Source of the DNA: a virus
Length of the DNA stretch: 61,053 bases
Direction: 5' to 3' (one strand)
IMG/VR virus record: IMGVR_UViG_3300027793_000007
Below are positions 33,708 through 61,053 of the stretch, one piece after another. The position numbers and the translations under genes are program-made. Numbering within the stretch: position 1 is the first letter of the stretch; the number at the start of each line of letters is the position of its first letter. Under the pieces are notes generated by a model that worked only from the letters and a program-made list of their open reading frames with translations, did not search any database and was not told the origin of the DNA.

Positions 33708-33718
33708 TAATTACTACC

Positions 33719-35103: not shown

Positions 35104-35123
35104 TACGCTACGCTATGGGGGAG
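35104..35123 (+). promoter_or_regulatory. phage promoter-like motif, copy 28
   Basis: tacgctacgctatgggggag, 15 nt upstream of ATG 35139. Confidence 0.6.
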
Positions 35124-35138
35124 ATTTAGGGTTAAGAG

Positions 35139-35372: not shown

Positions 35373-35441
35373 AGTCTATACAGAGAAGCCCCATCCATAA
35401 TAGATAGGGCTTTCTGAAATCTTCTTGACCTAAGAGGCGAT

Positions 35442-36143: not shown

Positions 36144-36180
36144 AGTTCTTTAGGGTTAGGGAGGTGATGGGAAGGATGAG

Positions 36181-36474: not shown

Positions 36475-36547
36475 AAGTGTTTAAGCAAAAATTATAGTCA
36501 AGAGTTTTAAGGTTCTCGCAAAACTAGAGAACCTTAATTAAGTGAGT

Positions 36548-37774
36548 TTAGAAGGGTTGGAAGGTACGCATAACAGTGATGTTATTAGAGTTGAGTAGTG
36601 AGTAACCACCGTACTCCTGCCAGATAGCCATTAGGAAGCGGTCATAGTCAGTGTTGTTGTTAAGCTTGACTCTTGGCCCTTCACCCCAGATAGCTTCACC
36701 AATGGCATTAGTACCAATGATGATTGCACATTCTGCTTGACGTACTACAGAAGTACCATCAGCATAACCTTGTGAGGCTAGACCAGAGGTAGTTAGGGTA
36801 ACTGGGATAGTAGGTAGGTTAGTTGCTTCAAACCAACGTACACCACCCATGATGAACCCTAGTGGCATAACCATAGAGTGCATGAATCCAGTTTGACCAT
36901 AGAAGCCACCACTCTTGACAAGGTCATTAGGTGACATTGTCCAGTCTTGTAGAGGCATCATCTGAGGTAGGGTTGCAGATTGTGCGCTCATGGGAAGCAT
37001 GGATACTGGAACACCTGGGTACTGTGTTACCTGTAAGAAGCGTGAGTCTTGTTGTAGTTGCAACATGAACCCGGGGCTAGCCAATCCATGATACACATCA
37101 CCGAAGTTAGATTGGAAAGGAGGGACTAAACGAGAGCGCATATCAGCGACTACCTTAAGTACATCTCTAGTGAAGTCTAGTCGAGGTGCACCTGTAGCTG
37201 TGTTATAAGTACCACCATTAACTATACCTGCGGGGTTATAGTATCCACCCACTAGGTTGTTAGCAACTTGTCCAGTGGTTGCTGTTGCGGGGTTAGCAGA
37301 TAGAGCTAGACCGATGTAGACGCTATCCTTCCAACGGCGATAGTCTTCAAATAGGGTTTCACTACCGATGGATTGATGGAACTGGTCAGCGCGGCTCATG
37401 TCATACAGGTTACGCTGCATGGTCATGAGGTCGAACATATTAATCTTTAACACCCCGGGTTCATTGGGGTTGGTGCTATTACCAGTGGATGGGCCAGTAA
37501 ACTCTTGAAGAGTAATGGTGACTGCTTCTTCTGGCAAGCCACGACCACCACCAGTACCGATGACTTGTGATTTATCGCGTGCACGGGCAGAGAGTGTGTA
37601 TGACCCTGGATCGTTCCAGAAGCCAAAGCGCTTCATACGTGCAGTAGAACCCGGTTGAGCAGCCCAGTCATGTACGATTTGGGGTTGTACAACATACCGA
37701 GCAATGTACTGCGGGCGGGGGCGATATAGCTCCACACCCATAATGATTTCTAACTGAGAACTAAATGTTGCCAT
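36548..37774 (-). CDS. major capsid protein (probable HK97 fold)
   Basis: 408 aa, in the portal-scaffold-capsid order. A stable hairpin lies just downstream (36509-36535). Confidence 0.6.
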   Translation of the reverse strand: MATFSSQLEIIMGVELYRPRPQYIARYVVQPQIVHDWAAQPGSTARMKRFGFWNDPGSYTLSARARDKSQVIGTGGGRGLPEEAVTITLQEFTGPSTGNSTNPNEPGVLKINMFDLMTMQRNLYDMSRADQFHQSIGSETLFEDYRRWKDSVYIGLALSANPATATTGQVANNLVGGYYNPAGIVNGGTYNTATGAPRLDFTRDVLKVVADMRSRLVPPFQSNFGDVYHGLASPGFMLQLQQDSRFLQVTQYPGVPVSMLPMSAQSATLPQMMPLQDWTMSPNDLVKSGGFYGQTGFMHSMVMPLGFIMGGVRWFEATNLPTIPVTLTTSGLASQGYADGTSVVRQAECAIIIGTNAIGEAIWGEGPRVKLNNNTDYDRFLMAIWQEYGGYSLLNSNNITVMRTFQPF

Positions 37775-37803
37775 TTCTTAGGAGTGGGTAAGGTGTAAGC
37801 GGA

Positions 37804-37823
37804 GTCCCTACGGTAAGGGATGA
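37804..37823 (+). promoter_or_regulatory. phage promoter-like motif, copy 29 (UACG variant)
   Basis: gtccctacggtaagggatga, 18 nt upstream of ATG 37842. Confidence 0.45.
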
Positions 37824-37841
37824 TGTTATGAGAAATGAGCT

Positions 37842-38126
37842 ATGTTCAATCATGCCGAAGCAATGATGATTATCGAAAGGCAAAAGGCTGAGATGGAAAG
37901 GCTAGGAGAAAACAACGAATATCTAAAGGCTCTTGTTAAAGATATGTCAGACAAGGTTGCCTTCACAGGACTAACCACTGAGGAACTACAAGGTATTCAT
38001 GGATTGATTCAAGGTCAGATTGCTTTAATATCTAGCCTTCAAACGTCTGATGATGTACTCAAGGTTCACTCAGCAGTAACGCCTTTAGCTCTCCTTGTCT
38101 CTCTAGTCTCTAAGCCAACTGACTAA
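37842..38126 (+). CDS. hypothetical coiled-coil protein (94 aa)
   Basis: Track ORF. Confidence 0.5.
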   Translation: MFNHAEAMMIIERQKAEMERLGENNEYLKALVKDMSDKVAFTGLTTEELQGIHGLIQGQIALISSLQTSDDVLKVHSAVTPLALLVSLVSKPTD

Positions 38127-39012
38127 CGAGCTGACCAAAGTGACCTGAATCAAGTTGGCGTAGTACATCAGTCATACGTCCACGACCACTACCTTGAGTA
38201 GCACCTTGACCCAAGCCCATATTCATTTGATTGAATGTGGGTCGTTGTGGTTCAGGAGCATACTCATAGCCTAAAGGTGCGGGAGGACGTTCTTGAACTT
38301 GTCCTTGTGGTTGATTAGAGCGTACTAGGTAGTCGTAGTATTGCTCAAAGGTTGCTTTAGGGTAAGCAGTGCGGAAGTTAATTACTTCAGGTAGTTGAGC
38401 AAGATGGAACTCTTGGTATTGGAGCCAATAACCAGTGTTTTCAGGGCTAGATAGAATCTGACCCATTTGAATAGCTTCCTTCTCAAGAGCTTGAGTATAG
38501 GCAACTACTTCACCTAATTGGTCTTCACGATGGATGAGTTGTTGATGGATGCGTGCAATGGCTAGCTCAGGCGATCCATTGCCAAAGCTATTGATTAGTT
38601 CGATTACCGAGGCGAGAGGATTACCCTGACTATCCTTTCCGCTTGGGGCGTTTAGGTCTAGCTTGGGGCTGTACTGTCTCGTTGGCGAGGTGACTTGGGG
38701 GGAGTACTGTGGTTGTACTGAAGTTGGGTTTGGTAAATAGCTGTTGGGAACCAAGCCGTTCAGGGTCAGGTAATCCGTAACTGGATTCGCTTGCTGAGTA
38801 GGAGCTACCACTGACTGAGGGGTTGTTTGTATCCAACCGCCCGTTGTCGGTGCGAATTGCTGAGGATGGGAGTACTGGGGGGTTAGCCCAGTCGAAGGGT
38901 AAGGGCTCACCAGTTGAGGTGCTGACTGCCACTGTGGGGCTACCGTTTGAGGAGCTACCTGTGGTGATGGGGCTTGTTGAACCTGATAGTTCTGAGGGAG
39001 TGCTTGTACCAT
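38110..39012 (-). CDS. putative scaffolding protein (Q/P-rich N-terminus, helical C-terminus)
   Basis: Lies between the portal and capsid genes. Its first 127 codons overlap the portal ORF in another frame. Confidence 0.4.
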   Translation of the reverse strand: MVQALPQNYQVQQAPSPQVAPQTVAPQWQSAPQLVSPYPSTGLTPQYSHPQQFAPTTGGWIQTTPQSVVAPTQQANPVTDYLTLNGLVPNSYLPNPTSVQPQYSPQVTSPTRQYSPKLDLNAPSGKDSQGNPLASVIELINSFGNGSPELAIARIHQQLIHREDQLGEVVAYTQALEKEAIQMGQILSSPENTGYWLQYQEFHLAQLPEVINFRTAYPKATFEQYYDYLVRSNQPQGQVQERPPAPLGYEYAPEPQRPTFNQMNMGLGQGATQGSGRGRMTDVLRQLDSGHFGQLVSQLA

Positions 39013-40735
39013 TAGTTAAGGGATTATCCTTGTTGTCAGCTTCATCATAGGATGCGCCGTAGGAGAACTCACGTTTCAGTACCGTGTACACTGAGTCCAT
39101 TAGATAAGTCATATCATAGCGCAAACTTAGAGCTTTACCCGGATTATATGGATCTTCTACCTGAGAAAGTTGCATATGTTGTTGTAAAAGATTATTGAAC
39201 AACCCTAAGTACTCACCTCCAATCCTAAAAGGAATGCCTGATAACTTAGCCTTCTTTTCTTTGAGGGATAGGTCAGGGAATACAGCATCAAGGGCTTCTA
39301 GACTTCCTACTCCTAGCTCTTGAAGGTTACGAGTATAGATAGTGCGGTCTAGTTTGTCTTGGGGTGAGTCCTCAAATACATCACCGTTATAGCGATAGTA
39401 GACATTGACTTCACCAAAGGGTTGTAGTCCTACGCTAATGGGTGCTTCGATACCGTCTTGCCAGATTAGTTGTTCAATCTGTTGTTGGGTAACTTGAGTG
39501 ATGTCAATCTTAGGGTCTTCCGATAGGAGCCACTGCTTGAATTGATCCATATATAGACGTTCTTCATGCATGATGCACAACTCAAGGACTCGGGATAGTC
39601 CATGTTGCCATAGGGTCAGGGACTTCATGTTGGCAGTAGCAGCCACTTTCCCATAGAGAGATTTGACCTCACCAAAGGTACTGAAAGACTGGTCATTCGG
39701 GTCAATGCCTCCTAAAGCTCCATGAAGCGCAGTGCGGTAAGTGTCAGCAAATCTAGCTTGGTCAGGAGATACGGGGTCAGGCACTACATAGCCAAATCTT
39801 TCATCAGCGTTTACATTTCCAATGACGGGAACAATCTTTTCGTGTTGACGCGCTGCCCATCCGCCATCATTACGTCTACCGCCAATACGCACAGAAGTTA
39901 GATCTTTGAAACCTTGTGAAGCAGCCCATGACTGAGTACCTATCTCAGTAGTCTTTTGCATCACTTCTTCACGGGAACGAGTAGTGATAAGGGTAGGATT
40001 GCCAAAGGTGAAGATATTTTGCATGATAGCGCCCCTTACCGTATCTTCGGCTTCTATCTGGTCACTAACCATAGCAAAGTCAGACCTACCACTATCCCCG
40101 GGGAAGTATGGGAGGTTGGGTGATTCTACACAAGGGATGTAGCCTAGTGTGTTGATGAAGGAGTTGACCTGAAGTGGGGGGGCGTAGTTAGAGCTAGTTG
40201 AGTAGATGTCTAGTGGTGGCTCGGCATTGAAGAACTCTTGGGTTACCGTGTCAGTCTTTACTCGTAGACGCACCCATCTCTCAGAACCTAGAGATGATTG
40301 AGCGTAGTACATTTGACTGGGTGAACGGTCATAGTACTTATATCTAATGATCACTTCTTGCATCTCCCTGCCATTGGGAGAGTAGAAGACCATGTATTGA
40401 GACTTAACATCATCTATTGAGTTATTCTCTTTACCGCTATGGAACCAATAGATTGAGTATCCGTCTAAGGTAGGTTGCATTAACCATAGAACACCACCAG
40501 TAGCTATGAAGAGTGAGGCGATCCCTTGGTAGTACATATCTAGCTTGTTAGCTTTGATAATCTTGTCTATGAATTTACGTCTTCGCTCATCAGGAGTATC
40601 TTGGTCTACAAGGAACTCTAAGCCCTGCCTAGTCATAAATAAGACAATCTGTTTGATATGGTTAGGTACTACCATACTTTCAGAGCCGCTATTCTTCCTG
40701 TCGATAAACGCCTGAACTACGCTACCTGTTTCCAT
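38630..40735 (-). CDS. putative portal protein (701 aa)
   Basis: Called from size and position next to the terminase and scaffold. The last ~130 aa are low-complexity S/T/P-rich. Confidence 0.6.
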   Translation of the reverse strand: METGSVVQAFIDRKNSGSESMVVPNHIKQIVLFMTRQGLEFLVDQDTPDERRRKFIDKIIKANKLDMYYQGIASLFIATGGVLWLMQPTLDGYSIYWFHSGKENNSIDDVKSQYMVFYSPNGREMQEVIIRYKYYDRSPSQMYYAQSSLGSERWVRLRVKTDTVTQEFFNAEPPLDIYSTSSNYAPPLQVNSFINTLGYIPCVESPNLPYFPGDSGRSDFAMVSDQIEAEDTVRGAIMQNIFTFGNPTLITTRSREEVMQKTTEIGTQSWAASQGFKDLTSVRIGGRRNDGGWAARQHEKIVPVIGNVNADERFGYVVPDPVSPDQARFADTYRTALHGALGGIDPNDQSFSTFGEVKSLYGKVAATANMKSLTLWQHGLSRVLELCIMHEERLYMDQFKQWLLSEDPKIDITQVTQQQIEQLIWQDGIEAPISVGLQPFGEVNVYYRYNGDVFEDSPQDKLDRTIYTRNLQELGVGSLEALDAVFPDLSLKEKKAKLSGIPFRIGGEYLGLFNNLLQQHMQLSQVEDPYNPGKALSLRYDMTYLMDSVYTVLKREFSYGASYDEADNKDNPLTNGTSTPSELSGSTSPITTGSSSNGSPTVAVSTSTGEPLPFDWANPPVLPSSAIRTDNGRLDTNNPSVSGSSYSASESSYGLPDPERLGSQQLFTKPNFSTTTVLPPSHLANETVQPQARPKRPKRKG

Positions 40736-40769
40736 GTATATCTCTATCTAATATTAGTTACTCTTACTA

Positions 40770-40789
40770 TACGCTACGCTAGGAGAAAG
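40770..40789 (+). promoter_or_regulatory. phage promoter-like motif, copy 30
   Basis: tacgctacgctaggagaaag, 14 nt upstream of ATG 40804. Confidence 0.55.
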
Positions 40790-40803
40790 AGTTAATAACA
40801 ACT

Positions 40804-41562
40804 ATGTATCAAAAGCCTTGGCTAATCCCTAACAACATTTATAGCAAAAGCCCTGACGTGTTTCTTCAGGCTCTTACTAATCCCACTCTAAGAGCTTCTA
40901 AACTAAAGAGACAATATCCAGTTGAGTACGCAGGGTATAACTTTGCTGATGCTGACAGTGCATTCTTTGGGTTAAGAGAGATGTTGCCTGAAACGTCTAA
41001 CCTAATGCTGTTGTCAGACATTAATGCTGCTAAGTTTATGCAACATCCTAGACTTATGGATGAGCTGTACAAAAGGGCTGGTCAAGGCGAAGTATCTAGT
41101 TATCTGAATACTTTAACTCATCGCACTGGCAAGGGTAGTCCTAAGTGGGAAGGCGATGGTCTACAGTCTAGAGCTATCCAAGCTTTGAATACTGGGTTTA
41201 AACAAGCTGCTCAAGTAGGTAAGTTAAGCATGGAGGATGAGATAGGTGATCTGCTATCCAGTGGATACAACCCTTTAACTTCTAACAGCCTAATTCGTTA
41301 TGCATCTCAACTGCGTAGACCTATAGATAGTATGGGTAGACGCATGGCTATAGACTTATCACAACCTCAAGTAGCACCTAACCCACAGCCTTCAATGAGT
41401 GCTATGGCAAGTGATGTACTAGAGCCATTAGGGGAGAGGCTACCACGGGGGATAAGCGATGACTTAGGGCAACAGTACTTAGCTATGCAAGAAACCATGA
41501 AAGCTAGACAGGCTCTACAGTCTCTAGCTGCCTTTGCTAATCAGTATGACATTCCCTACTAA
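40804..41562 (+). CDS. hypothetical protein; very weak NADAR (YbiA/DUF1768)-like pattern
   Basis: Track ORF. YPVEYAGYNFADADSAFFGL...AAKFMQHPRLMDELYKRAG...KWEGDG loosely recalls NADAR motifs. Confidence 0.5.
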   Translation: MYQKPWLIPNNIYSKSPDVFLQALTNPTLRASKLKRQYPVEYAGYNFADADSAFFGLREMLPETSNLMLLSDINAAKFMQHPRLMDELYKRAGQGEVSSYLNTLTHRTGKGSPKWEGDGLQSRAIQALNTGFKQAAQVGKLSMEDEIGDLLSSGYNPLTSNSLIRYASQLRRPIDSMGRRMAIDLSQPQVAPNPQPSMSAMASDVLEPLGERLPRGISDDLGQQYLAMQETMKARQALQSLAAFANQYDIPY

Positions 41563-41717
41563 GGCATGAGTAGCTAGGGCATATGGCTATAGACTTAGAA
41601 CCTTTGTATGGGTATGGATTAAACAATATGACTAGTGCATATTACCCATAGATTCTCCCCCTACAGTGTACCCTATCCTTAAGACGGCTGAGTTTGATGT
41701 TGAGTACGGTACTGAGC

Positions 41718-43382
41718 CTAAGATAGAGGCAAGCGATAACCCAATCCAATAACACCACAAGTAAGTGAATCAACAAAGTCATCGTGTAGAGTACTGCCGA
41801 AGAACAGCAACTCCTTAATAGTGGACTGAGAGGGACTGTACTTAAACTTATTGAAAGTGATGTTGCCAACTTGCAATGCACCTGATATAGCCATAAGTCT
41901 TTCCCTCTTATCTCCTTTGAGCTTAAGTGGTCGAGGGTGTATAGAGTGGATGCCCATAGCTACTTTGATTAGTGCATTGAAGTCAGCCATGATGCTCAAC
42001 TGTTGTGATACGTCCTCTAGATATAGGTCAATGTATACGTTAGGACGAGACTTATACTTGATGGGAAACTGTTGCGCTACAGGGTCATCTGGATTAGTCC
42101 AGCCTTCTTCATCTATGTCTAGAAGGTCATGGTCATAGAGGAGCATTAGTAGTTGGTTGAGTTTAGCTATGTTCCCAGAAGCCTTAAACCTTGCACTACC
42201 AAGTAGGTCAATACGTCCATTGGATGTACTACCATAACGCCCCATTAGAGTGAATACAGTGAAGTCAGCTTTCTTTTTAACACTATCGGCAAGGTCAGTA
42301 CCAATGGCGAAGCGGGAGTAAGCACTTACCTTCTCTGGGTAATCGTACTTAATCCACTCGGGAGGTATAGCTAGTCCACCAATTGAGACAATCTTATTTT
42401 GATACTGGAAACTAAAGGAGATAGGGTCGCCACCTTTATCTGGGTCTCGCAAGGTGAGTAGGTGCTTGAGTGGTATGAACTCTTCCCAGTAGCTTATCTC
42501 CTTACCATCATCACTTTCGACTATGGCTTGTTGTTCAATTACCTTCCAGCGCTTCTCAGTGTTGAACTCAGTTGCGTATAGGTCATCAGCACTCATTCGA
42601 GTACCAATACATATTTGTCTACCACCAGGGAACATAGTAGGTTTAATAGCGTTGTGGTAAGTACTAGCCATCTTCTCTCTAACTGTGGGATTCTCGATAT
42701 CCGCAGGTGATTTGATAAGGTCATCAAAGAGAATGATGTGCGCTCTACGAGAGGTGACACTACCAACAATGCCAGCACAGGCTAGGGTATATGGCTCACC
42801 TAGTGCTTGTAGTCCTGCCTTACGCTTATCTATTTCCCATACCTCATCAGACCATCTCTTACCCTTAGAGACGTTAGGGAATACTTGTTGGAATCTATCA
42901 GACTCAATGATTTGTTTTATCTCTATGGACTTTTGAGTACTAATGGTGATTGAGTAAGAGATAACCAGTACTTTGATAGGAATACCAGCCTCAGTCTGCA
43001 CACCTATCTGATGCGCGATCCACTCGGTCATGAATCTAGACTTAGCGCTTAGTCGTGGAGCTAGGATTAGAGTGTTAGAACCACCAATACCTTTAAGACA
43101 ACGCGAGTCTTCTCCTGTGAATAGCTCATCCATCCACTCAGAGTGGTGCTTAGGTCTTGCATACTTATGTGCTGCTAAGTCATTGATGTCCTCTACACCT
43201 TCTTCATTAGCAGATATTTGAGGGAAGCACACATACTCCCTGAAGGCTGTGAACCCTTCCTTGGTATTTTGTCTAGCCTTGAGGACTAAGGGCTGAGTAG
43301 CTTGTGTTGCAGCCTTGGCATGGTAAGTGACATCAGCTTGTATCTGAAGTCCAAGGGATGTGGATGGTCTGAATCGAGCCAT
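41718..43382 (-). CDS. terL: terminase large subunit
   Basis: Walker A-like LILAPRLSAKSRF, Walker B AHIILFDDLI, nuclease-domain GTDLADS, 554 aa. Confidence 0.85.
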   Translation of the reverse strand: MARFRPSTSLGLQIQADVTYHAKAATQATQPLVLKARQNTKEGFTAFREYVCFPQISANEEGVEDINDLAAHKYARPKHHSEWMDELFTGEDSRCLKGIGGSNTLILAPRLSAKSRFMTEWIAHQIGVQTEAGIPIKVLVISYSITISTQKSIEIKQIIESDRFQQVFPNVSKGKRWSDEVWEIDKRKAGLQALGEPYTLACAGIVGSVTSRRAHIILFDDLIKSPADIENPTVREKMASTYHNAIKPTMFPGGRQICIGTRMSADDLYATEFNTEKRWKVIEQQAIVESDDGKEISYWEEFIPLKHLLTLRDPDKGGDPISFSFQYQNKIVSIGGLAIPPEWIKYDYPEKVSAYSRFAIGTDLADSVKKKADFTVFTLMGRYGSTSNGRIDLLGSARFKASGNIAKLNQLLMLLYDHDLLDIDEEGWTNPDDPVAQQFPIKYKSRPNVYIDLYLEDVSQQLSIMADFNALIKVAMGIHSIHPRPLKLKGDKRERLMAISGALQVGNITFNKFKYSPSQSTIKELLFFGSTLHDDFVDSLTCGVIGLGYRLPLS

Positions 43383-43387
43383 AGGGG

Positions 43388-43407
43388 AACGCTACGCTAG
43401 GGGAGGA
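43388..43407 (+). promoter_or_regulatory. phage promoter-like motif, copy 31
   Basis: aacgctacgctaggggagga, 18 nt upstream of ATG 43426. Confidence 0.6.
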
Positions 43408-43425
43408 TTAATAACTGAGGGACTA

Positions 43426-43599
43426 ATGAAACTATACATGATTCTTTACAGGTCGCACTATTCTAAAAACTGGTCTGTTATTGGTGAATACTTTGAGAGC
43501 CTAGATGCTGTTAAAACACATATTGCCCTATGTAGAAAAGCTTATAAAGGGACTGAATACAAATTAGTGGCAGGAGAGGTTGAGGTATTAGATGATTAA
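43426..43599 (+). CDS. hypothetical small protein (57 aa)
   Basis: Track ORF 43360 trimmed to the ATG after the motif. Confidence 0.5.
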   Translation: MKLYMILYRSHYSKNWSVIGEYFESLDAVKTHIALCRKAYKGTEYKLVAGEVEVLDD

Positions 43600-43792
43600 C
43601 TACACCCTAGAGCGTTGCATCACCAATGATGATAACTGGGAGCATTACTGTGACCTTGGATGTGATGAGACTACAGCTATTGAGATGTGGCATTACTGGC
43701 AAGAGAAACAACCTAACTATGCATTTAGGATGTATAAGGTCACCAAACAACTAGTAGCTATGATTGGGCATCCTAATGGAGGTGGACGATGA
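43592..43792 (+). CDS. hypothetical small protein (66 aa)
   Basis: Track ORF with overlapping start. Confidence 0.5.
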   Translation: MINYTLERCITNDDNWEHYCDLGCDETTAIEMWHYWQEKQPNYAFRMYKVTKQLVAMIGHPNGGGR

Positions 43793-43959
43793 CAGTTAAT
43801 GAATTGTACTTACAACTTGAAGCACTCATTAATGAGGGGTATGAAGGATTAGAAGTAGGAGTTGTTGATACTGTTAACAACAAACTTACCTTTAGCCTTT
43901 CACTAACCTTGCTTCAACAAGGAGATGAGATGTTTATAGGAGTTAAGCATGACAGTTAA
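43789..43959 (+). CDS. MTVNEL-family small protein (56 aa)
   Basis: Hand-translated; ATGA coupling; MTVNELYLQLEALINEGYEG. Confidence 0.45.
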   Translation: MTVNELYLQLEALINEGYEGLEVGVVDTVNNKLTFSLSLTLLQQGDEMFIGVKHDS

Positions 43960-44179
43960 TGAAGCTATTGAAACAACGACTTATCACATTGAGTATTGCC
44001 CTAAAACTAATAGCGAATACAGTCAGCACAAAGTAGGTGACTGGAAGACTGATTCTTCCTGCAAAGACTTAGATGAGGCTTCAGCCAAGTCTGCTTTAGA
44101 GTGGAGTCGTGAGAACTTTCATTACAACAACTACAGGGTTGTTAAGACCGTAAGTACACAAACTATATTGGATTGGTGA
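43949..44179 (+). CDS. MTVNE-family small protein (76 aa)
   Basis: Track ORF. The 5' sequence atgacagttaatgaa is shared with 43789, 44182 and 7639. Confidence 0.5.
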   Translation: MTVNEAIETTTYHIEYCPKTNSEYSQHKVGDWKTDSSCKDLDEASAKSALEWSRENFHYNNYRVVKTVSTQTILDW

Positions 44180-44181
44180 TT

Positions 44182-44442
44182 ATGACAGTTAATGAATTGA
44201 TTGCTAGATTGCAGTCATTAGCGGAGCAAGGCTATGGCGAGTCAAGCGTACATTTATATTTAGAGGGAAAGAAAGATGTGTCTGCAGTCATTTGCTATCC
44301 AGCTAAAGTTACTGAGACAGGGCTAAGTGGATGGGATGGGACTATACCTCCCTATATCCTCTTGAGAGAACCTGACAAATCTAATAAATGGCTAGAATAT
44401 GGGCTGACGATCCCTAAACCTCTTCCGCGATCCTTTGAATAG
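44182..44442 (+). CDS. MTVNEL-family small protein (86 aa)
   Basis: MTVNELIARLQSLAEQGYGE. 53459..53671 has a related N-terminus. Confidence 0.5.
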   Translation: MTVNELIARLQSLAEQGYGESSVHLYLEGKKDVSAVICYPAKVTETGLSGWDGTIPPYILLREPDKSNKWLEYGLTIPKPLPRSFE

Positions 44443-45052
44443 CAGCTTGAAAATACTGCTCAAGTGCTGGTCTAAAGGGTGAGTTCTTCTCAAGCATATT
44501 GAGTACTAAAGACTTCACCCTATCAGCACCAGCTAGTAGTAGCTCCCTCTCTCCTGTACGTTCCTTTACTTGTGCTAGGGCTTGTAGTATCTGCTTAGTC
44601 TGTCCTACCACTGCTGGATACTGAGCGATGATTGATTGCATCTGAGAGTCAGTTATCTCTCCCCCGTCTAACTTGTTTTGGATTAGACCACCATAATCGA
44701 ATGCTAGGTTAGCAGTCCTAACGGCTAATGATTCAAGACCCCCTACTACATCAATGCCCGCGTACTCTTCTAGCTTACGGTTAAGGGTATCAGCTTCAGT
44801 ACCAGCCTTAATGCCCTTGACCTTTAGCCATGCCTTGATTTGAGGTATTGAACACACACATCCATTCTTGACCAACCAAGCTAGTTGTTGACCGTACTCA
44901 GTAGGGTTGCGTCTACAAAGTAGGGTGAATTGAGACTCTAGCTCAGAGTCAAGCTGTTGATTGAAGAACCCTTGGATTACCTGATGTGCTGGTATAGCAT
45001 CGGGATACTTCTTAGGTCTATTAGCGGGATTCCGCATTGATGATGATGCCAT
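44414..45052 (-). CDS. hypothetical protein; candidate small terminase subunit by position
   Basis: 212 aa, upstream of terL on the same strand (separated by a forward island). No motif support. Confidence 0.5.
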   Translation of the reverse strand: MASSSMRNPANRPKKYPDAIPAHQVIQGFFNQQLDSELESQFTLLCRRNPTEYGQQLAWLVKNGCVCSIPQIKAWLKVKGIKAGTEADTLNRKLEEYAGIDVVGGLESLAVRTANLAFDYGGLIQNKLDGGEITDSQMQSIIAQYPAVVGQTKQILQALAQVKERTGERELLLAGADRVKSLVLNMLEKNSPFRPALEQYFQAAIQRIAEEV

Positions 45053-52590: not shown

Positions 52591-52597
52591 ATAAAAA

Positions 52598-52617
52598 GAC
52601 GCTACGCTATGGGGAAG
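52598..52617 (+). promoter_or_regulatory. phage promoter-like motif, copy 32
   Basis: gacgctacgctatggggaag, 28 nt upstream of ATG 52646. Confidence 0.6.
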
Positions 52618-52645
52618 AATAAACTAAGTATATCTCTAAACTTCT

Positions 52646-54720: not shown

Positions 54721-54767
54721 GATTCTTTGGATAGGCTCTATTTACTCTTTCTTCCATTCCATTTGAA

Positions 54768-54806
54768 CCACGACGGGGAGACCCCGTGACACCCCCTTAC
54801 TTGATT
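54768..54806 (+). repeat. hairpin element H1
   Basis: ccacgacggggagaccccgtgacacccccttacttgatt, nearly identical to H3. Confidence 0.7.
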
Positions 54807-54834
54807 TTATACTTTCGCTTAAACCAAATTACTT

Positions 54835-54913
54835 CTGTCTTATTCATTGTCTTCTCTAATCTCTGTTCTATTCATTATCTTCTCTAATTACTGTAGTTCT
54901 ATCCATTATAACT
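54835..54913 (+). repeat. tandem repeat of about 27 bp, 2.5 copies
   Basis: ctgtcttattcattgtcttctctaat / ctctgttctattcattatcttctctaat / tactgtagttctatccattataact. Confidence 0.65.
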
Positions 54914-55047
54914 TACCTACGGCTCTGATATAGCTTCCTTTTTGGCTGTACTGGCTTTATATTTTTACTAAATGGAAGTACTTTATACAGGTTTTTGTTT
55001 ATCTGTTATACTCTACCCCACAACAACCTAAACCGCAGAACAAAAAA

Positions 55048-55080
55048 GGTACGGGGAGACTCCGTGACACTCCCTAAGAC
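55048..55080 (+). repeat. hairpin element H2
   Basis: ggtacggggagactccgtgacactccctaagac. Confidence 0.6.
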
Positions 55081-55132
55081 CAGCGCGTCTTACGCAAGTG
55101 TAGTCTTTCGTTCCACGCGCTGATGCTCATCA

Positions 55133-55170
55133 CACCACGGGGAGACCCCGTGACACCCCCTTACTTGATT
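55133..55170 (+). repeat. hairpin element H3
   Basis: caccacggggagaccccgtgacacccccttacttgatt; 7-bp GC stem with a 3-nt AGA loop. Confidence 0.7.
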
Positions 55171-55354
55171 ATACGTTTCCGTATGATACTCATTTGTACT
55201 AGTTGAGGGTGCGGTTGTTACATTGGCACATACATCGGCACATACATCGCACTACTTTGTAGCACATACACACTGCACGCAGAGGCTCTAGCACACCAGT
55301 TAGCTCTCACCTATCTACACAGTTGCCGACACATAGTGACTTGCATTCCATGCT

Positions 55355-55514
55355 CTGAGTTACTAGCACAGCACAGGTATATCGCCCTCAACAGTTGTAT
55401 CGTGTGTGAATTCCTTACCTTTCAGGCGCTGAGATGCTAGCACAGCACGGGTATCTGCTCCTCAACAGATATGTCTTCTACGAATTTCCTTGCCTAAAGG
55501 CGCTGGGATACTAG
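55355..55514 (+). repeat. 74-bp tandem repeat, 2.2 copies (about 70 percent identity)
   Basis: Units start ctgagttactagcacagcacagg (55355), ctgagatgctagcacagcacggg (55429) and ctgggatactag (55503). Confidence 0.65.
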
Positions 55515-55624
55515 TTATAGCCTAGAGCAGGGGGCGTTGCGGGGGGCGGCTAGCCATCCCGCACAGTGACTTAACTTTTTTACCTTCGGTCTGTGGGAGG
55601 CATACTTTATTTGGGATTAATCCT

Positions 55625-55951
55625 ATGTCTACTTTATTCTCTCTTGTTGGTTTCTGCGTTCAGTTGGTTGTTATCTTCTCCTCTATTGCACTCATCATTG
55701 ATACGCATGAGTATCTCTGCTCTCAAGACACTGCCGATGAGTCTGACGCTACGCTACCTATGACCACAAGCCACTGTGCTAAGTCAATGACAACTCCCGC
55801 TATTGTGACTACCATCAGTGAGTTTGAGCTTTACCCCGATATTAACTCTATGACTGTTAAGCAACTCAAGTCCTATGCCAAGGCTTCTGGCTTTACAGGA
55901 TACAGCGCACTCCGCAAGGCTGAGTTAATCAGCTTACTCTCAGAATTCTAG
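55625..55951 (+). CDS. membrane-anchored protein with a Rho-N/SAP-like C-terminal domain
   Basis: N-terminal TM segment LVGFCVQLVVIFSSIALII. The C-terminus MTVKQLKSYAKASGFTGYSALRKAELISLL fits the Rho_N/SAP pattern. Confidence 0.55.
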   Translation: MSTLFSLVGFCVQLVVIFSSIALIIDTHEYLCSQDTADESDATLPMTTSHCAKSMTTPAIVTTISEFELYPDINSMTVKQLKSYAKASGFTGYSALRKAELISLLSEF

Positions 55952-56046
55952 CCTATCTCGACAGCCACTTGTGATAAGCATGAGTGGCTTAACTCTCTTA
56001 ACTTCGTTTTGTTAATCATTGTATTTTATTAATTTGGAGATTAACC

Positions 56047-56600: not shown

Positions 56601-56649
56601 GCATCAGATGTCTAGCTCCTTAGTTAGATGTCTGATGCATTTTTTTTTC
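56601..56649 (+). terminator. rho-independent terminator
   Basis: 14-bp stem gcatcagatgtcta/tagatgtctgatgc (2 G-U pairs) followed by a T9 run. Confidence 0.8.
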
Positions 56650-56747: not shown

Positions 56748-56852
56748 GATAATGATGACGATGATGAAGGTTAAGTTGCTTAGTTCTAGGTAACTTAACT
56801 TTCTTAGCTACGCTTTGATGATTGTGTAAATTGTTTAGTTTTGGAGATTGCT

Positions 56853-57077: not shown

Positions 57078-57142
57078 TCCCGCAGTCCTAAGCATGACTC
57101 TAAACTGCTTCCCTCATAGACCCTGCGTTACCCGAAAGGTAT

Positions 57143-57164
57143 GACGCTACGCTATGAGGGTGAC
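57143..57164 (+). promoter_or_regulatory. phage promoter-like motif, copy 33, upstream of the RNA polymerase gene
   Basis: gacgctacgctatgagggtga, 40 nt upstream of ATG 57205. Confidence 0.55.
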
Positions 57165-57204
57165 TTCTGATGTTTAGTTCATATCTAGTAAGGAGATATT
57201 GGTG

Positions 57205-60054
57205 ATGAATGTAGCCAAGTACGAGTTTATTGACGGGCAGTTTAAGCGCACGATGGAAGTTCCATTGCGAATGACTCTCTTAGAGCAAGTGTGCGTCAAC
57301 TTGGGGGTTTCGCCAACCTCTATTGTCATTCTTGAGTTGGGCGGTATCGCGCCCAAAGAGCTAAGGAAGGACGGCGATAAAGGCAAGGAACTTCTTGCTC
57401 AACAGATGGAAGTCCTTGCTTCTGCAAGTCAATCTCTAGCTGACAATGGTATTACCTTGGATGGTGTGCATTACTCACTTCTCCAAGCAACTAGTGGTGC
57501 TAAGACCTCTGCTTCTATGTTGCTGTCGAGTGACATTCGTCTTATTGAATACTTTAGAGGTAATGACCAACACAAAGGTTTGATGTGTCATCCCAGCAAG
57601 TCATACGAGCAGCTAATGATGGGATACCAGCTTCCACTCACTCCCAACAAGGCTGTTGTTACAGCCAAGTTACGGGTTCTCATTGTGGATGATGAGTTTG
57701 ATAACTATCAGGTACACGCTGGTTCTATCAGCCAGTGTGTTGGCGCAAACCCTGATGGCAGCCCCAAGTGGGAGGTTATCTCGTCTTGGCAGGATGAGAC
57801 TATTCGCCATTATGATACCCGTCAGTCCGTTGCTGGTGTGGGCGACTGTCACATCAAAATCTCTCAAGGCTTGGCTAACTATCTCAGCACTAAAGTCACG
57901 GGCTTCAACAGCACGACTGGACAACCCATGACATTCCTTGACAGCGCTAATCAAGGCTGTCAATTCAGGCTAATGGTGGGTGAATGCCCTGCAATGGCTA
58001 AGGGAACATTCGTGGTAGAGCCTAGCCTTGCAGAGGATTACCACATGGTAATCCCTAAATCATGCTTTAAGTTGGGCTATCCTAACTTGTTAACTCTTGA
58101 TGGTGTATTGACTATCACGCTAGGAGCAACCATGCAGGCTGTGGATGGCAAGGCAGCATTTGGCTCTCAGTTTGCTCGCTCCATGAGTAAGTCAGTGCTG
58201 GAAGTTCGCAAACCTTACATTGCAGAACAGATGGCTCGCCTTAATACTGCTGGTTCTTCTATTCAAGAAGCGGCTAAGTTCTTCAATGCAGAAGCCAACT
58301 CTAAGGTTATCTGGTTTGAGGAGAACGAAGATGGTGAAGAAGTGGAGCAGTCCCGTGACGACTGGTTCTACAAGGCTATGCACTCCATAGCAACTAGTGA
58401 GCATCTAAGTTGGGCGCTCAAAGACCCAACCATCATTCAACGCATCCTCTCTAGCATTAGCAAGAGGAAGATGAAGTTAGCTCTAGGCATGGGCTTTGAG
58501 GGTAGAGTTCGTACTGCATTACCTGATGATACCCTTCCACTCCATGTAATCAGTGCATCTGATGCAAGAGTTCTTAAGTGGAAGGATGGGAAGTGGTTCA
58601 ACGGCAAGAAGGCACTACCACATGGTGCTGTTGGTATGGTTGAGTCTAATGGAACTCAACACATTGGCTTGTTAGTGGTTAGGGGCAAAGCGCCTATCAT
58701 GAACCATGCCGAGCAATGCTTGGGCGTTCTTGTCCATCGTCCTGATGGTATTGGATCGGGTTGCGAGTTTATGAGCCATCAATCAGCATCGGTCTGCACT
58801 ATGGACTTTGATGGTGATAGGAATAGTACTCTAGTCTGGAAGGATGAAGTTGGCTATCTCGAAGCTATCAATCACTTTGTCAAGATTCAGAGACATTGCC
58901 CAATTACTCCTGTTATCAAGGAGAAGTCCAAGGTTAATCGTGGATGGGGTGAGTTAACTCGCTTAGTCTATGAAAGCGCCTTCGAGATGGGTTGTAGTGG
59001 CATTACCTCTATGTATTGCCAAGCGACAGAAGCTAGTGGTGTTAAGGGATTCAACTCTTGGTTGGAGTCTATTGCGACATTGACTGGTGCTACTCAACTA
59101 TACCTTGACTGTCAGAAGTATGCACCTCAGAACCCTGATGAGTTGAAGTCTATCATTGATGGTGCTATGGAGTACTTTCAAGCATGGCAGACTGACCAAC
59201 GCTCTAGTGATTTAAGGTCTATGCCTTATATCCATCGTGGGCTTAACACATGGAAGATGGCTGGGTTTTGTGACAATGCTAAACCCAAGCATGATGTTGG
59301 TACTATTGCTGCTTGCATCAACTATGTCAATGGATTGCATGAAGTGCCAGCGTTGTTAGATGGTATGAAGCCTCTAACTCACCTTCGTGGTATCTGGGGT
59401 GATTACTCAGCCCATGATAAGCAAGTGGCTATCGACTTTAAGGCTTCACTTAGAGCTTTTGATGCACTATGCAAGGAAGGTGATGCTGATACTAAGAAGG
59501 TATCGGCTCTCATTGACGATGCTAGAGTGCGTTGTGAGTCATTCACCGATGCTCAGTTCAGTGCGTTCTGGGATTTGTCCTATAACAAAGACTGTCTCAT
59601 TGAGGTTGGGCAAGACAAGAAAGAGTACATTCCCACAGCTAACAAGCCTTGGATGCTGTTCACACAGCGCATTCTTGAGAACACTCCTGAGTTGTTGCTT
59701 AAGAAAGAGACTGTGTTATTTAAGCATGGTGGTAAATCCCCTCACGCTATTGATGCAGTAACTCGTACTCAACTGTTGGAGAAACTCACTAAGGAGTCTT
59801 TTAAGACAGTGTGTGAGGTATCTCCTGAGTTCGTAGTCTTCCATGAGAAGAACAAGACTCTTGAGATGTTTCCAGTCATCAGTGTCAAGCGTGGCATTGT
59901 GATTGGTTACGTTGGTACTCATGTAGTGCCAGATACCTATGAGGTCGAACTATCTGCTATCCGTAAGCAGAAGATTGACAAGCCAACTGGACTTACCTAT
60001 ATGGAAGTCTATGAGTCTGGCTTTATGATGCGTATCATCGACATTGACTTTTAA
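57205..60054 (+). CDS. single-subunit two-double-psi-beta-barrel RNA polymerase (YonO / RdRP-like)
   Basis: VVRGKAPIMNHAEQCLGVLV...MSHQSASVCTMDFDGDRNSTLVW parallels beta-prime LLNRAPTLHRLGIQAF...NADFDGDQMAVHV. QFRLMVGECPAMAKGTFVVEP parallels the Lys-bearing barrel. GVGDCHIKISQGLANYL resembles the RdRP DGxGxIS..LA motif. ATG lies 8 nt after AAGGAGA. Confidence 0.8.
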   Translation: MNVAKYEFIDGQFKRTMEVPLRMTLLEQVCVNLGVSPTSIVILELGGIAPKELRKDGDKGKELLAQQMEVLASASQSLADNGITLDGVHYSLLQATSGAKTSASMLLSSDIRLIEYFRGNDQHKGLMCHPSKSYEQLMMGYQLPLTPNKAVVTAKLRVLIVDDEFDNYQVHAGSISQCVGANPDGSPKWEVISSWQDETIRHYDTRQSVAGVGDCHIKISQGLANYLSTKVTGFNSTTGQPMTFLDSANQGCQFRLMVGECPAMAKGTFVVEPSLAEDYHMVIPKSCFKLGYPNLLTLDGVLTITLGATMQAVDGKAAFGSQFARSMSKSVLEVRKPYIAEQMARLNTAGSSIQEAAKFFNAEANSKVIWFEENEDGEEVEQSRDDWFYKAMHSIATSEHLSWALKDPTIIQRILSSISKRKMKLALGMGFEGRVRTALPDDTLPLHVISASDARVLKWKDGKWFNGKKALPHGAVGMVESNGTQHIGLLVVRGKAPIMNHAEQCLGVLVHRPDGIGSGCEFMSHQSASVCTMDFDGDRNSTLVWKDEVGYLEAINHFVKIQRHCPITPVIKEKSKVNRGWGELTRLVYESAFEMGCSGITSMYCQATEASGVKGFNSWLESIATLTGATQLYLDCQKYAPQNPDELKSIIDGAMEYFQAWQTDQRSSDLRSMPYIHRGLNTWKMAGFCDNAKPKHDVGTIAACINYVNGLHEVPALLDGMKPLTHLRGIWGDYSAHDKQVAIDFKASLRAFDALCKEGDADTKKVSALIDDARVRCESFTDAQFSAFWDLSYNKDCLIEVGQDKKEYIPTANKPWMLFTQRILENTPELLLKKETVLFKHGGKSPHAIDAVTRTQLLEKLTKESFKTVCEVSPEFVVFHEKNKTLEMFPVISVKRGIVIGYVGTHVVPDTYEVELSAIRKQKIDKPTGLTYMEVYESGFMMRIIDIDF

Positions 60055-60064: not shown

Positions 60065-60110
60065 GAAGATGTAAGTATTTAGGGAGTTATCTTTGAGTAC
60101 TTACATCTTC
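60065..60110 (+). terminator. 13-bp perfect hairpin after the RNAP gene (no strong T run)
   Basis: gaagatgtaagta / tacttacatcttc, then tctt. Confidence 0.4.
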
Positions 60111-60190
60111 TCTTATCTACTAGTTTGTCCCTTGATGGACTAGGCTTTGACGCTTCGCTATTTGATAATAATATTTGTTTGGAGTTAAAT

Positions 60191-60325: not shown

Positions 60326-60328
60326 ATA

Positions 60329-60377
60329 GGCTGTATAGGTTAGGGGGTTATCCTCTAGTCTATACAGCCTTTTTTTT
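60329..60377 (+). terminator. rho-independent terminator
   Basis: ggctgtatag / ctatacagcc 10-bp stem followed by T8. Confidence 0.8.
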
Positions 60378-60403
60378 GCTTTGTCCTCTACGTTCTAAGT
60401 TAG

Positions 60404-60423
60404 GACGCTACGCTAGTAAGTAA
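60404..60423 (+). promoter_or_regulatory. phage promoter-like motif, copy 34 (first of a tandem pair)
   Basis: gacgctacgctagtaagtaa, part of a duplicated ~47-bp unit tctacgtt..aag.taggacgctacgcta. Confidence 0.5.
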
Positions 60424-60451
60424 TAGCCTATCTGTCTACGTTTGAAGGTAG

Positions 60452-60471
60452 GACGCTACGCTATTAGATAA
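60452..60471 (+). promoter_or_regulatory. phage promoter-like motif, copy 35 (second of the tandem pair)
   Basis: gacgctacgctattagataa. No ORF for about 150 nt downstream. Confidence 0.55.
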
Positions 60472-60581
60472 CTCAAGGGTTTTGATGCTTTTACCTGAGT
60501 TCTATGACAAAGCATCCTAAAGTTCTCAGCGCTCACTTGAGTAGTGCTACCGTTTGTGTTAACAACATAATTATCCTTTTG

Positions 60582-60600
60582 CTGCTACGCAATGGGATAA
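60582..60600 (+). promoter_or_regulatory. phage promoter-like motif, copy 36 (variant)
   Basis: ctgctacgcaatgggataa, 28 nt upstream of ATG 60629. Confidence 0.5.
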
Positions 60601-60628
60601 GTTATCTATTCTATTTGTGAGTTCTATT

Positions 60629-60864: not shown

Positions 60865-61053
60865 ATGCTAACTCTTAGATATCCCTGCGACTATCGTTTT
60901 TCAAGCAATGGTGGGGACTACGCCCACTACTGCAAACAGGTAAATGAAGATTTCATCATCTTCTGGTCATCTGGCGAGTTGGCGGAAGAAAACACGATGA
61001 TTGGATACCACCGAGGTAAGCCAATAATCGTCACACGGCACGACTGCTACGGC
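60865..61053 (+). CDS. 5' part of the junction-spanning hypothetical gene (continues at 128..343)
   Basis: ATG 4 nt after GGAGA. MLTLRYPCDYRFSSNGGDYAHYCKQVNEDF... reads in frame into the track ORF 53..343. Confidence 0.6.
   Translation, partial: MLTLRYPCDYRFSSNGGDYAHYCKQVNEDFIIFWSSGELAEENTMIGYHRGKPIIVTRHDCYG
60927..61053. repeat. terminal overlap, copy B (identical to 1-127)
   Basis: See copy A. Confidence 0.9.

Follow-up and report, generated by a model that had tools for sequence, protein, structure and literature searches.

The virus record IMGVR_UViG_3300027793_000007 of IMG/VR, a stretch of 61,053 nucleotides that is here called the window, raises two connected questions: what kind of enzyme is encoded by the long gene at 57205-60054 on its plus strand, and is this enzyme the reader of a promoter-like motif of about 20 bases that is repeated along the same strand? 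An earlier reading, made from the sequence alone, had proposed a phage-encoded two-barrel RNA polymerase (RNAP) of the type of YonO or the RNA-dependent RNA polymerases (RdRPs). We find that the fold, the order of the motifs and the conservation agree on a single-chain two-barrel RNAP. Positions 1-127 of the window are identical to 60927-61053, as a direct terminal repeat or as the overlap of a circular assembly, and the window is therefore a complete phage genome of about 60.9 kb. It is probable, in our judgement, that the protein is a catalytically competent enzyme of the RdRP/QDE-1 branch, and that it serves this phage as a promoter-specific transcriptase which is not carried in the virion.

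The open reading frame (ORF) runs on the plus strand from a TTG at 57199 to 60054, and would give the 951 aa of the sequence-only reading if the TTG were used. The ATG at 57205 is the likely start, because it is preceded by the Shine-Dalgarno (SD) sequence AAGGAG (57190-57195), 9 nt before the ATG, and because the N-termini of the homologues (MN..KYEF) agree with it. The gene then covers 57205-60054, stop codon included, and both barrels lie in one chain, as had been claimed, with a likely length of 949 aa. The first barrel (DPBB-B, for double-psi beta-barrel, similar to the beta subunit) sets in with GVGDCHIKIS (aa 211-220, 57835-57864), which holds D214 and belongs to the longer stretch GVGDCHIKISQGLANYL (aa 211-227). 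It continues with QFRLMVGECPAMAKGTF (aa 253-269, 57961-58011), the strands with Q253-x-R255 and K266, and with PKSCFK (aa 284-289, 58054-58071), which ends in a second conserved lysine, K289. The lysine-bearing partner barrel upstream of the metal loop is thereby supported, but its stretch QFRLMVGECPAMAKGTFVVEP (QFRL..AKGTF), which begins at aa 253, lies 281 aa before the loop and not about 270. In the second barrel (DPBB-A, similar to beta-prime), the strand RGKAPIMNHAEQ (aa 493-504, 58681-58716), earlier described as RAPTLH-like, precedes the metal-binding catalytic loop DFDGD (aa 534-538), whose position at 58804-58818 had been given exactly. No other large ORF in the window has a DxDGD. 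A lone DFDGD pentapeptide could occur by chance in the six-frame translation of 61 kb, at a frequency that we estimate at a few per cent; its context goes beyond chance, with an ORF of 949 codons, 40 homologues, and D534, D536 and D538 invariant in 36/36 phage-type members.

An AlphaFold2 model, built on an alignment of 41 sequences, has a mean local confidence (pLDDT) of 80.1 and a predicted template modelling score (pTM) of 0.75. Foldseek searches of the PDB with this model gave 18 matches at E<=1e-3, over about 850-1000 aligned columns, and 18/18 are single-chain two-barrel polymerases. They comprise maize and Arabidopsis RDR2 (E 1e-12 to 1e-9), Neurospora QDE-1 (E 2e-10 and weaker), the Thermus-phage proteins P32 gp64 and P74 gp62 (E 1e-6 to 3e-5; 8f72 E 1.4e-6, 8f5m E 2.4e-5; target template modelling (TM) score 0.47-0.49) and gp66 from phi14:2, a crAss-like phage (E 5e-4). 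The match to RDR2 and QDE-1 covers the whole chain, with about 940 aligned columns and TM scores of 0.41-0.44. The structure comparison that the sequence-only reading had proposed as a check was therefore positive for QDE-1 and crAss gp66, and also for RDR2 and gp64/gp62. Subunits of multisubunit RNAPs came next in the fold ranking, with non-significant scores only, and neither DNA polymerase D (PolD) nor primases were among the PDB fold matches. Pfam gave no match of the protein to the T7-type RNAPs (PF00940), and the fold matches were exclusively two-barrel enzymes. In a library of predicted viral structures the top matches were phage proteins from metagenomes that carry the label RdRP; crAss-like proteins came next. 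The model places the beta-like barrel first (aa ~205-320) and the beta-prime-like barrel second (aa ~430-545), and the fold matches and these two beta-rich blocks argue for two DPBB domains that would form one cleft.

The protein belongs to a family, here called A1, that is rare and unannotated, as seen from direct annotation and homologue searches. Neither the protein against Pfam, PHROGs and the PDB sequences, nor the family profile against the PDB, gave a significant match. IMG/VR contained one relative, and a database of 5.8 billion proteins 40 homologues, all unnamed and none with a Pfam domain. A hidden Markov model search of 1.84 billion cluster representatives returned only 2 full-length clusters, fragments, and 4 distant bridging proteins. 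A1 consists of 36 phage-clade sequences (the window protein and 35 relatives, 51-89% identity) and 5 cellular copies. The signature strings of the family are absent from the supplement of PMC10770324.

The bridging proteins (P0046-P0049) retain GDCH/GDSH, QFR, AKGT, SxFK and GDFDGD, and two of them, P0047 and P0048, score 22.5 and 23.6 bits against PF05183, the Pfam model of the RdRPs, where the gathering score is 23.8. Expansion from P0048 gave a second family, A2 (P0046-P0078), many members of which have precomputed PF05183 matches; one member, P0069, exceeds the gathering score (37.2 vs 23.8 bits) with a match that spans QFR through DFDGD. When the profiles of A1 and A2 were aligned with hhalign, the probability was 100% (E 1.4e-43, 700 columns) and every motif was in register. 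Among the PDB sequences the A2 profile matches only QDE-1 and RDR2, weakly (E 0.07), with the GDFDGD of A2 on the GDYDGD of QDE-1 and the GDLDGD of RDR2. A2 members are located in phage-like metagenomic contigs of about 50 kb, in an early-gene context, and a tblastn search of 50,697 GenBank phages found no relative of the window protein or of P0048. The same kind of alignment against YonO, which entered as a single sequence so that sensitivity was limited, gave probabilities of 0.08% for A1 and 0.44% for A2. Kinship with YonO was thus rejected at the level of detectable similarity to the two profiles, and the YonO half of the earlier label is not supported; of the relatives named there, QDE-1 and crAss gp66 stand by fold. 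The polymerase is therefore placed in the RdRP/QDE-1-like branch of phage two-barrel RNAPs, of which it is a divergent member that does not itself satisfy the Pfam model. This kind of polymerase is already known, and A1 is an unannotated, uncultured addition to it.

The active site can be compared with that of QDE-1, whose complexes show four catalytic aspartates, D709 in DPBB1 and D1007, D1009 and D1011 in DPBB2, as well as K743, K767 and the Q736-x-R738 signature that is typical of RNA interference (RNAi)-type enzymes (PMC9508822). Eight positions of the window protein, D214, Q253, R255, K266, K289, D534, D536 and D538, show no variation among the 36 phage-clade sequences (D214 counted in 35/35), and D214, Q253-F-R255, K266, K289 and the D534/D536/D538 triad follow one another in the QDE-1 order with similar spacing. 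The two lysines are 23 residues apart (24 in QDE-1), the second lysine and the DxD 245 (240 in QDE-1), and the first aspartate and the glutamine 27 in the insert-less homologue P0033, as in QDE-1. The sister family A2 retains GDCH and conserves D214, Q253, R255, K266 and K289, and the Q, F, R, K, G and T of QFRLMVGECPAMAKGTF are invariant both in A2 and in the phage clade of A1. In the strand before the metal loop R493, P497, I498, E503 and Q504 are invariant, and RGKAPIMNHAEQ aligns to 'RYPVRSWAD' of A2, which is itself aligned to 'aRsPahfpsD' of QDE-1. The predicted beta-prime-like barrel thus has its DxDxD (DbDGD) loop, and the predicted beta-like barrel both basic and acidic residues. By analogy with QDE-1, D214 is proposed to be the fourth catalytic aspartate, equivalent to D709; together with D534, D536 and D538 it would hold two Mg2+ ions, while Q253, R255, K266 and K289 would grip the RNA product at its 3' end, as well as the incoming nucleoside triphosphate.

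The five most distant homologues, P0036-P0040, carry D214N, R255S/N/C, K289Q, D534S/N, G537E/K and D538G, so that the DFDGD loop reads S/N-F-D-E/K-G, and keep the neighbouring structural residues. Five of the 8 predicted active-site positions are fully replaced in them, as compared to 42 of the 226 other phage-invariant positions (Fisher p=0.009). All five are full-length homologues in Pseudanabaena cellular DNA (L003/L004 291-3281; L013; L014 6001-9902), with genes for a GTPase, HxlR, protoglobin, MOSC and arginine decarboxylase as neighbours. One copy, in a 294-kb chromosomal contig of Pseudanabaena sp. Salubria-1, is split by an insertion sequence with a DDE transposase in a transposase-rich island. 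The five share the same substitutions although their mutual identity is only 72-88%, and the inactivation is therefore old. To judge from their residues, the Pseudanabaena copies are decaying or domesticated relics, and the pattern of loss suggests which residues are important in the phage enzyme and hints at the host group. Residue conservation predicts, as part of the joint explanation that we consider best, that the product of the window ORF is catalytically competent.

The second question concerns the motif, which can be written RRA-CGCTACGCTA-GGGGATAG or RRA-CGCTACGCTA-KGGGRWAR, with the consensus AGGA-CGCTACGCTA-GGGGATAG, and as GACGCTACGCTAGGGGATAG for transcription templates. The 20-mer of the sequence-only reading has 9 matches at <=3 mismatches, all on the plus strand and none expected, and the core ACGCTACGCTA was found 29 times where 0.65 would be expected, 28/29 of them on the plus strand. 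A position weight matrix (PWM) built from 30 copies finds 36 plus-strand sites at >=10 bits (32 at >=15), and 3 on the minus strand at >=10 bits, one of them strong. The motif is the only over-represented oriented word in the genome. It lacks a -35/-10 shape, and an ORF of >=40 aa begins within 120 nt after 27/36 copies, typically with an SD sequence. The CTA|GGGG junction resembles the initiation region of T7-group promoters, which we take as a lead only.

The motif is kept at syntenic positions in the related phages L001 and L002, whose polymerases are 79% and 64% identical to that of the window. In L011 (56% identical) it has become GCTACGCA-TTGGGATAG (GCTACGCA..GGGATAG), with a copy before the polymerase gene there too. 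In L010 (51% identical) it is CCCTACGGGKAT and occurs on both strands, and each intergenic copy stands 30-45 nt ahead of a start codon of its own orientation. The cellular loci of Pseudanabaena lack the motif. Judged from these sequences, the motif behaves as a directional promoter that co-evolves with a phage-encoded reader. Among the window proteins we found no sigma factor, no T7-type RNAP and no second two-barrel or DxDGD protein, a virion RNAP included; the two-barrel enzyme is therefore the obvious reader, and it probably does read the motif.

The polymerase gene is part of a plus-strand block at 55.6-60.3 kb, and its neighbours are small early-type genes and a gene for a protein with a Rho_N/SAP domain, not structural genes. 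The block follows a non-coding region of about 870 nt (54760-55620) that contains three plus-strand copies of the hairpin-forming repeat ACGGGGAGACyCCGTGACACyCCC, two of which run into a sigma70-like GTGACA-16-TATACT pair. The first of these, ACGGGGAGACCCCGTGACACCCCC with its sigma70-like pair at 54773-54813, is a candidate early promoter for host RNAP upstream of the polymerase block; the copy at 55051-55074 has 2 mismatches, and that at 55137-55177 has the same downstream sequence (…CTTACTTGATTATAC) as the first. The sigma70-like promoter repeat is kept in L002. A strong terminator-like hairpin on the plus strand (17 pairs and a T-run, 56601-56648) separates the upstream early genes from the polymerase unit, which has its own candidate promoter in a variant motif copy at 57141-57164 (ATGACGCTACGCTATGAGGGTGAC, plus strand, 25.2 bits), 40 nt upstream of the ATG. 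Immediately 3' of the stop codon is a 20-pair hairpin (60065-60110, plus strand), and the unit ends at a terminator-like hairpin of 20 pairs and T8 (60328-60380, plus strand).

The genome is laid out as a chain of divergent units, and 10 of the 14 minus-strand units, including those of the portal-like protein, the terminase and the tail module, have their first start codon 0-40 nt from the left edge of a plus-strand motif copy. At the tightest junctions, mostly those of structural units, the distance is 0-12 nt (20516/20518, 26042/26044, 28666/28670, 29703/29708, 31581/31592, 43382/43390 and 52590/52600). These units have no SD sequence, and the only word that they share upstream is the reverse complement of the motif. 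The unit of the major head protein adjoins only a weak variant copy at 37802-37825 (11.1 bits). We found no second motif for the minus-strand structural units; there is no other over-represented oriented word, and one strong PWM copy on the minus strand. Sigma70-like matches in 25000-44900 are depleted, 24 as compared to 40.5 ± 7 from shuffles, which suggests that host-type promoters are avoided in the structural region. Both in the window and in L010 the motif accompanies small early-type genes rather than large structural genes. The earlier claim of an obvious candidate promoter set thus largely holds, with 36 oriented copies, but the motif does not explain how the structural genes are transcribed. 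These late genes may depend on the host polymerase with weak promoters that have a -10 only, on long read-through transcripts, or on coupling to the divergent motif. At the divergent junctions, where start codons abut at 0-12 nt, the motif might also control the structural operons, and such bidirectional or coupled control would be undescribed for phage RNAPs.

With these elements the following course of infection can be proposed. Host RNAP would start at the sigma70-like promoters (54.8-55.2 kb) and read into the block at 55.6-60.3 kb, which would yield the first polymerase molecules. The phage enzyme would then recognise the motif, probably starting in its G-run; T7-type promoters also initiate in a G-run. 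From about 36 copies it would transcribe the co-oriented genes, that is, small early-type genes, replication genes and its own gene, the last giving positive feedback. The repeats, the terminator at 56601-56648 and the gene's own motif copy favour host-driven read-through first and positive feedback thereafter. Most likely the virion does not carry the enzyme, because its gene lies in an early-type plus-strand block outside the structural module and has sigma70-like promoters upstream.

Several observations weigh against this reading or limit it. The search with PF05183 that the sequence-only reading had proposed was negative for the window protein itself, which gave no match even at E<=10 where 23.8 bits are needed, and for the family members P0019 and P0038; the link to that family is transitive and structural. 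A focused profile of the first barrel (A3) retrieved neither QDE-1 nor RDR2 from the PDB sequences, and we therefore infer the one-to-one mapping of the first-barrel residues from their order, their spacing and their joint loss. The DFDGD loop has a pLDDT <50 in the model, as is expected for a metal loop modelled without ligand. The co-variation of motif and polymerase over three lineages is confounded by the divergence of the genomes. About 80% of the phage genes are unannotated, so that an unrecognised factor could read the motif, and 10/14 of the minus-strand units are without a promoter-like element of their own, which leaves late transcription unexplained by the model. Finally, the gene's own motif copy and the terminator upstream of it (56601-56648) would fit an enzyme delivered by the virion equally well.

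This last point leads to the rival that survives best, although we regard it as rather unlikely: the same enzyme might be packaged in the virion, be injected with the DNA and transcribe the motif-bearing early genes without host RNAP. Packaged RNAPs are known in crAss gp66, N4 vRNAP and P23-45 gp96, and the window protein has fold matches to the crAss virion RNAPs. A gene with its own motif copy behind a terminator that follows the sigma70-like promoters needs either pre-existing enzyme or read-through, and the depletion of sigma70-like sites over 25-45 kb also counts in favour of this rival. However, with 949 aa the protein is far below the known virion RNAPs, which have 2,000-3,500 aa or are fused to tail proteins, and its closest fold matches (RDR2, QDE-1 and gp64) are free-standing. 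The position of the gene in the early-type plus-strand block, away from the head, portal and tail genes, and the three sigma70-like promoter repeats upstream of that block argue in the same direction.

It is somewhat less likely again that the motif is read by host RNAP together with an unrecognised phage factor, or by a DNA-binding regulator, while the enzyme itself carries out RNA- or single-stranded-DNA-templated antisense or double-stranded RNA synthesis. In favour of this, the enzymes that match best in fold are RNA-dependent and copy single-stranded DNA as well (PMC9508822), the Q-x-R signature is typical of RNAi-type RdRPs, and the early transcripts of crAss gp66 have no common promoter motif (10.1101/2020.03.07.982082). 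The large unannotated share of the genome leaves room for such a factor, and the one strong motif copy in antisense orientation, at 10188-10211, would fit as well. The characterised phage members of this class (YonO, gp66, gp64/gp96) are nevertheless all DNA-dependent transcriptases (PMC5467207, PMC10770324). The motif is without -35/-10 elements, and no sigma-like protein was found. The motif also shifts with the divergence of the polymerase, and loci with a dead polymerase do not have it.

We give very little credence to the enzyme being a replication primase or initiator that lays RNA primers at the one-strand motif sites. The copies do lie on one strand whatever the direction of the neighbouring structural genes (with 1 strong minus copy), the GC skew climbs over about 46 kb regardless of coding strand, and the two-barrel PolD shows that the fold can be used in replication. 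On the other hand, a PriCT_2/VapE primase-helicase and a second primase-like protein are already encoded, no PolD or primase appeared among the fold matches, the copies stand a short distance upstream of co-oriented genes with SD sequences (27/36 with an ORF within 120 nt), and those of L010 track gene orientation on both strands. Scarcely credible, finally, is a window copy that has become an inactive relic, or that is a structural protein keeping a polymerase-like fold. The five Pseudanabaena homologues without catalytic residues, one of them split by an insertion sequence, might suggest this, but the window copy and its 35 relatives keep every predicted catalytic residue and the ORF is intact.

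The promoter-specific transcriptase that we prefer can be compared with the known systems. To QDE-1 and RDR2 it is linked by the best whole-chain fold match, the same barrel order, the DbDGD loop, the Q-x-R and K..K pattern and the spacings; the differences are a sequence identity of only about 10% and the missing PF05183 match. A double-stranded DNA phage with a dense promoter-like motif would be expected to use promoter-directed transcription of DNA, and not RNA-templated amplification as in QDE-1/RDR2. A2 is the closest sequence relative outside A1, with GDCH, QFR, AKGT, SxFK, MSHxTA and GDFDGD in common and with its phage early-gene context, and is, like A1, uncharacterised and absent from the GenBank phages. 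It differs in having 23% identity and about 720-750 aa, as compared to 949; the insert of ~45 residues that separates the first strand from GVGD in the window protein is missing from A2, as is part of the C-terminal region.

By analogy, the best functional counterpart is gp64 of P23-45, P32 and P74-26 (gp62), likewise a phage-encoded, free-standing single-chain two-barrel RNAP (fold E 1e-6, target TM 0.48). It is made early, is absent from virions and is associated with a conserved promoter motif (PMC10770324). Unlike the window protein it has about 600 aa; the two have no detectable sequence similarity, the fold match is weaker than that to RDR2/QDE-1, and in published comparisons gp64 groups with gp96 and not with QDE-1/gp66. 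Only about 7 GC-rich promoters are known for gp64, as compared to about 36 motif copies in the window. The crAss phi14:2 gp66 has the two-barrel fold with QDE-1-like features (fold E 5e-4), but is a 2,180-aa virion protein with the motif DFDID, whereas the window protein has 949 aa and is encoded outside the structural module; no common promoter motif was seen for gp66 transcripts (10.1101/2020.03.07.982082). YonO, a single-chain two-barrel DNA-dependent RNAP of about 100 kDa that transcribes phage genes from an undefined promoter (PMC5467207), represents the same concept. It has one mapped start site and one late operon, while the window has dozens of copies before early-type genes.

The 36 plus-strand motif copies of the window are listed here, with their PWM scores in brackets. 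In the region up to 10 kb they lie at 2358-2381 (23.8 bits), 5222-5245 (16.2 bits, with a variant tail), 7599-7622 (29.6 bits), 8345-8368 (21.2 bits), 8560-8583 (28.8 bits), 8801-8824 (25.3 bits) and 9243-9266 (24.1 bits). They are followed by 10286-10309 (23.1 bits), 11396-11419 (31.7 bits), 12688-12711 (26.5 bits, with no ORF of >=40 aa after it), 12917-12940 (12.7 bits, weak), 13031-13054 (22.6 bits), 13139-13162 (14.5 bits, weak), 14108-14131 (20.9 bits), 14965-14988 (29.3 bits), 15611-15634 (27.0 bits) and 15664-15687 (20.9 bits), the last two upstream of a tRNA-like element. Divergent junctions are marked by the copies at 20514-20537 (23.4 bits), 26038-26061 (31.1 bits), 28666-28689 (30.6 bits), 29704-29727 (33.1 bits, an exact match to the 20-mer of the sequence-only reading), 31588-31611 (32.0 bits), 35102-35125 (26.4 bits), 40768-40791 (26.1 bits, start of the portal-like gene), 43386-43409 (27.4 bits, start of the terminase) and 52596-52619 (31.1 bits, start of the tail module). 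Between these are 20822-20845 (29.5 bits), 21185-21208 (25.8 bits), 23360-23383 (22.9 bits), the weak copy beside the start of the major head protein unit, and another weak one inside the portal-like gene (39424-39447, 11.2 bits) that is possibly due to chance. Beyond the copy before the polymerase gene there are four more, at 60147-60170 (18.9 bits, a variant), 60402-60425 (27.2 bits), 60450-60473 (30.7 bits) and 60579-60602 (20.0 bits).

Two sub-classes of the motif were observed. In the all-plus region at 8.5-15 kb, the copies that start at 8560, 8801, 9243, 11396, 13031 and 14965 are preceded by (C)TAGCG and form a TAGCG-CTA-CGCTA hairpin or palindrome. At divergent junctions RGACG stands before the copies, and the two sub-classes may differ in timing or in strength. 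The strong minus-oriented copy (10188-10211, 29.9 bits) is in the intergenic gap 10108-10447, antisense to the gene at 9352-10107, and might drive the synthesis of an antisense or small RNA. Downstream of the variant copy at 5222-5245, in the replication region, is a plus-strand ORF of 760 aa (5318-7600), possibly for a replication enzyme that has gone unrecognised; it has no Pfam or PHROG match, and L001 and L002 have counterparts of 866+ and 740 aa. The tRNA-like element at 16060-16186 (plus strand, 127 nt), about 375-450 nt downstream of the copies at 15611 and 15664, is an Rfam tRNA match of 40.4 bits. Its acceptor, D and T arms are intact, but ~43 nt are inserted in the anticodon region and the variable region is long, and it overlaps a doubtful ORF of 71 aa. 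ARAGORN called no tRNA at this position, and the element may be an intron-containing or degenerate tRNA.

The non-coding region before the polymerase block has further repeats, namely two tandem pairs, one with units of 28 nt (54834-54889) and one with units of 74 nt (55340-55487), besides short direct repeats (GGCACATACATCG), and the minimum of the cumulative GC skew is near it (~56 kb). The region 54760-55620 may be a cluster of early promoters, a replication origin, or both. Small GC hairpins of the form CAGCGCC[TC]-NNNN-GRGGYG recur, on a single strand and close to the non-coding region, in every related phage examined (54450-54470, 54522-54542 and 54700-54720 in the window; 7679-8010 in L010; 7945-8030 in L011). 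The word CAGCGCC[CT], which is enriched in L010, was considered as a promoter substitute there and discarded, being these small hairpins. A 28-nt repeat, GTRRCTTAACTYTYTTA.CT.CG..TG, occurs at 55566-55593, 55984-56011 and 56790-56817, each time about 30-35 nt before one of three successive genes in the polymerase block (starts 55625, 56047 and 56841), and could serve as a shared leader or as a third regulatory element. The first of these genes (55625-55951, plus strand) encodes 108 aa with a C-terminal nucleic-acid-binding domain of the Rho_N/SAP type (Pfam, 27.1 bits), has counterparts at the same position in L001 and L002, and its product could be a transcription or DNA-binding cofactor.

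In 2-kb bins the cumulative GC skew climbs from about 0 to about 46 kb and drops only over 48-56 kb. It is +0.10 to +0.12 across the minus-strand head and portal genes at 36-40 kb, and the skew is therefore not simply tied to the coding strand; largely unidirectional replication, co-oriented with the motif, may lie behind it. The annotated genes are those of a tailed phage, with a large terminase, a major head protein, a portal-like virion protein, the PriCT_2/VapE primase-helicase, an exonuclease and the second primase-like protein. The sole cultured relative is the polar freshwater cyanophage S-EIV1, whose portal-like protein is 31% identical and in which no polymerase homologue and no DxDGD ORF was found. 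The phage, an uncultured freshwater phage, probably has a cyanobacterial host of the Pseudanabaena type.

The RNAi polymerases of eukaryotes have been placed in one clade with the single-chain two-barrel RNAPs of phages and plasmids, in a superfamily of which 23 families have been described (PMC10770324). It has been proposed that the RNAi polymerases came from phages (10.1101/2020.03.07.982082), and RdRP-like DxDGD proteins have been noted in other phage groups (10.1101/842583). More tentatively, we suggest that A1 and A2, which already have the 'RNAi-specific' Q-x-R signature for product binding, could be closer to the eukaryotic RNAi polymerases than any viral relative seen so far. The window enzyme would then be, unlike the characterised two-barrel single-chain enzymes, a factor-independent, T7-style transcriptase with about 36 promoters, and its specificity would have diverged naturally from CGCTACGCTA to GCTACGCA to CCCTACGG; as a whole this proposal is more doubtful than the assignment of the enzyme itself. 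Single-chain two-barrel RNAPs are taken to model the ancestor from which all cellular RNAPs derive, and to be the likely source of the eukaryotic RNAi polymerases. To our knowledge only four phage members have been studied (YonO, crAss gp66, P23-45 gp64 and gp96), and their promoter recognition is essentially unknown. A small enzyme with about 36 near-identical candidate promoters, natural variants that track its divergence and natural dead copies would be tractable with cloned parts and no phage culture, and promoter specificity, initiation and the relation to QDE-1/RDR become directly testable. The analysis also gives an annotation to a 'dark' protein family, and suggests Pseudanabaena as the host of an uncultured phage lineage.

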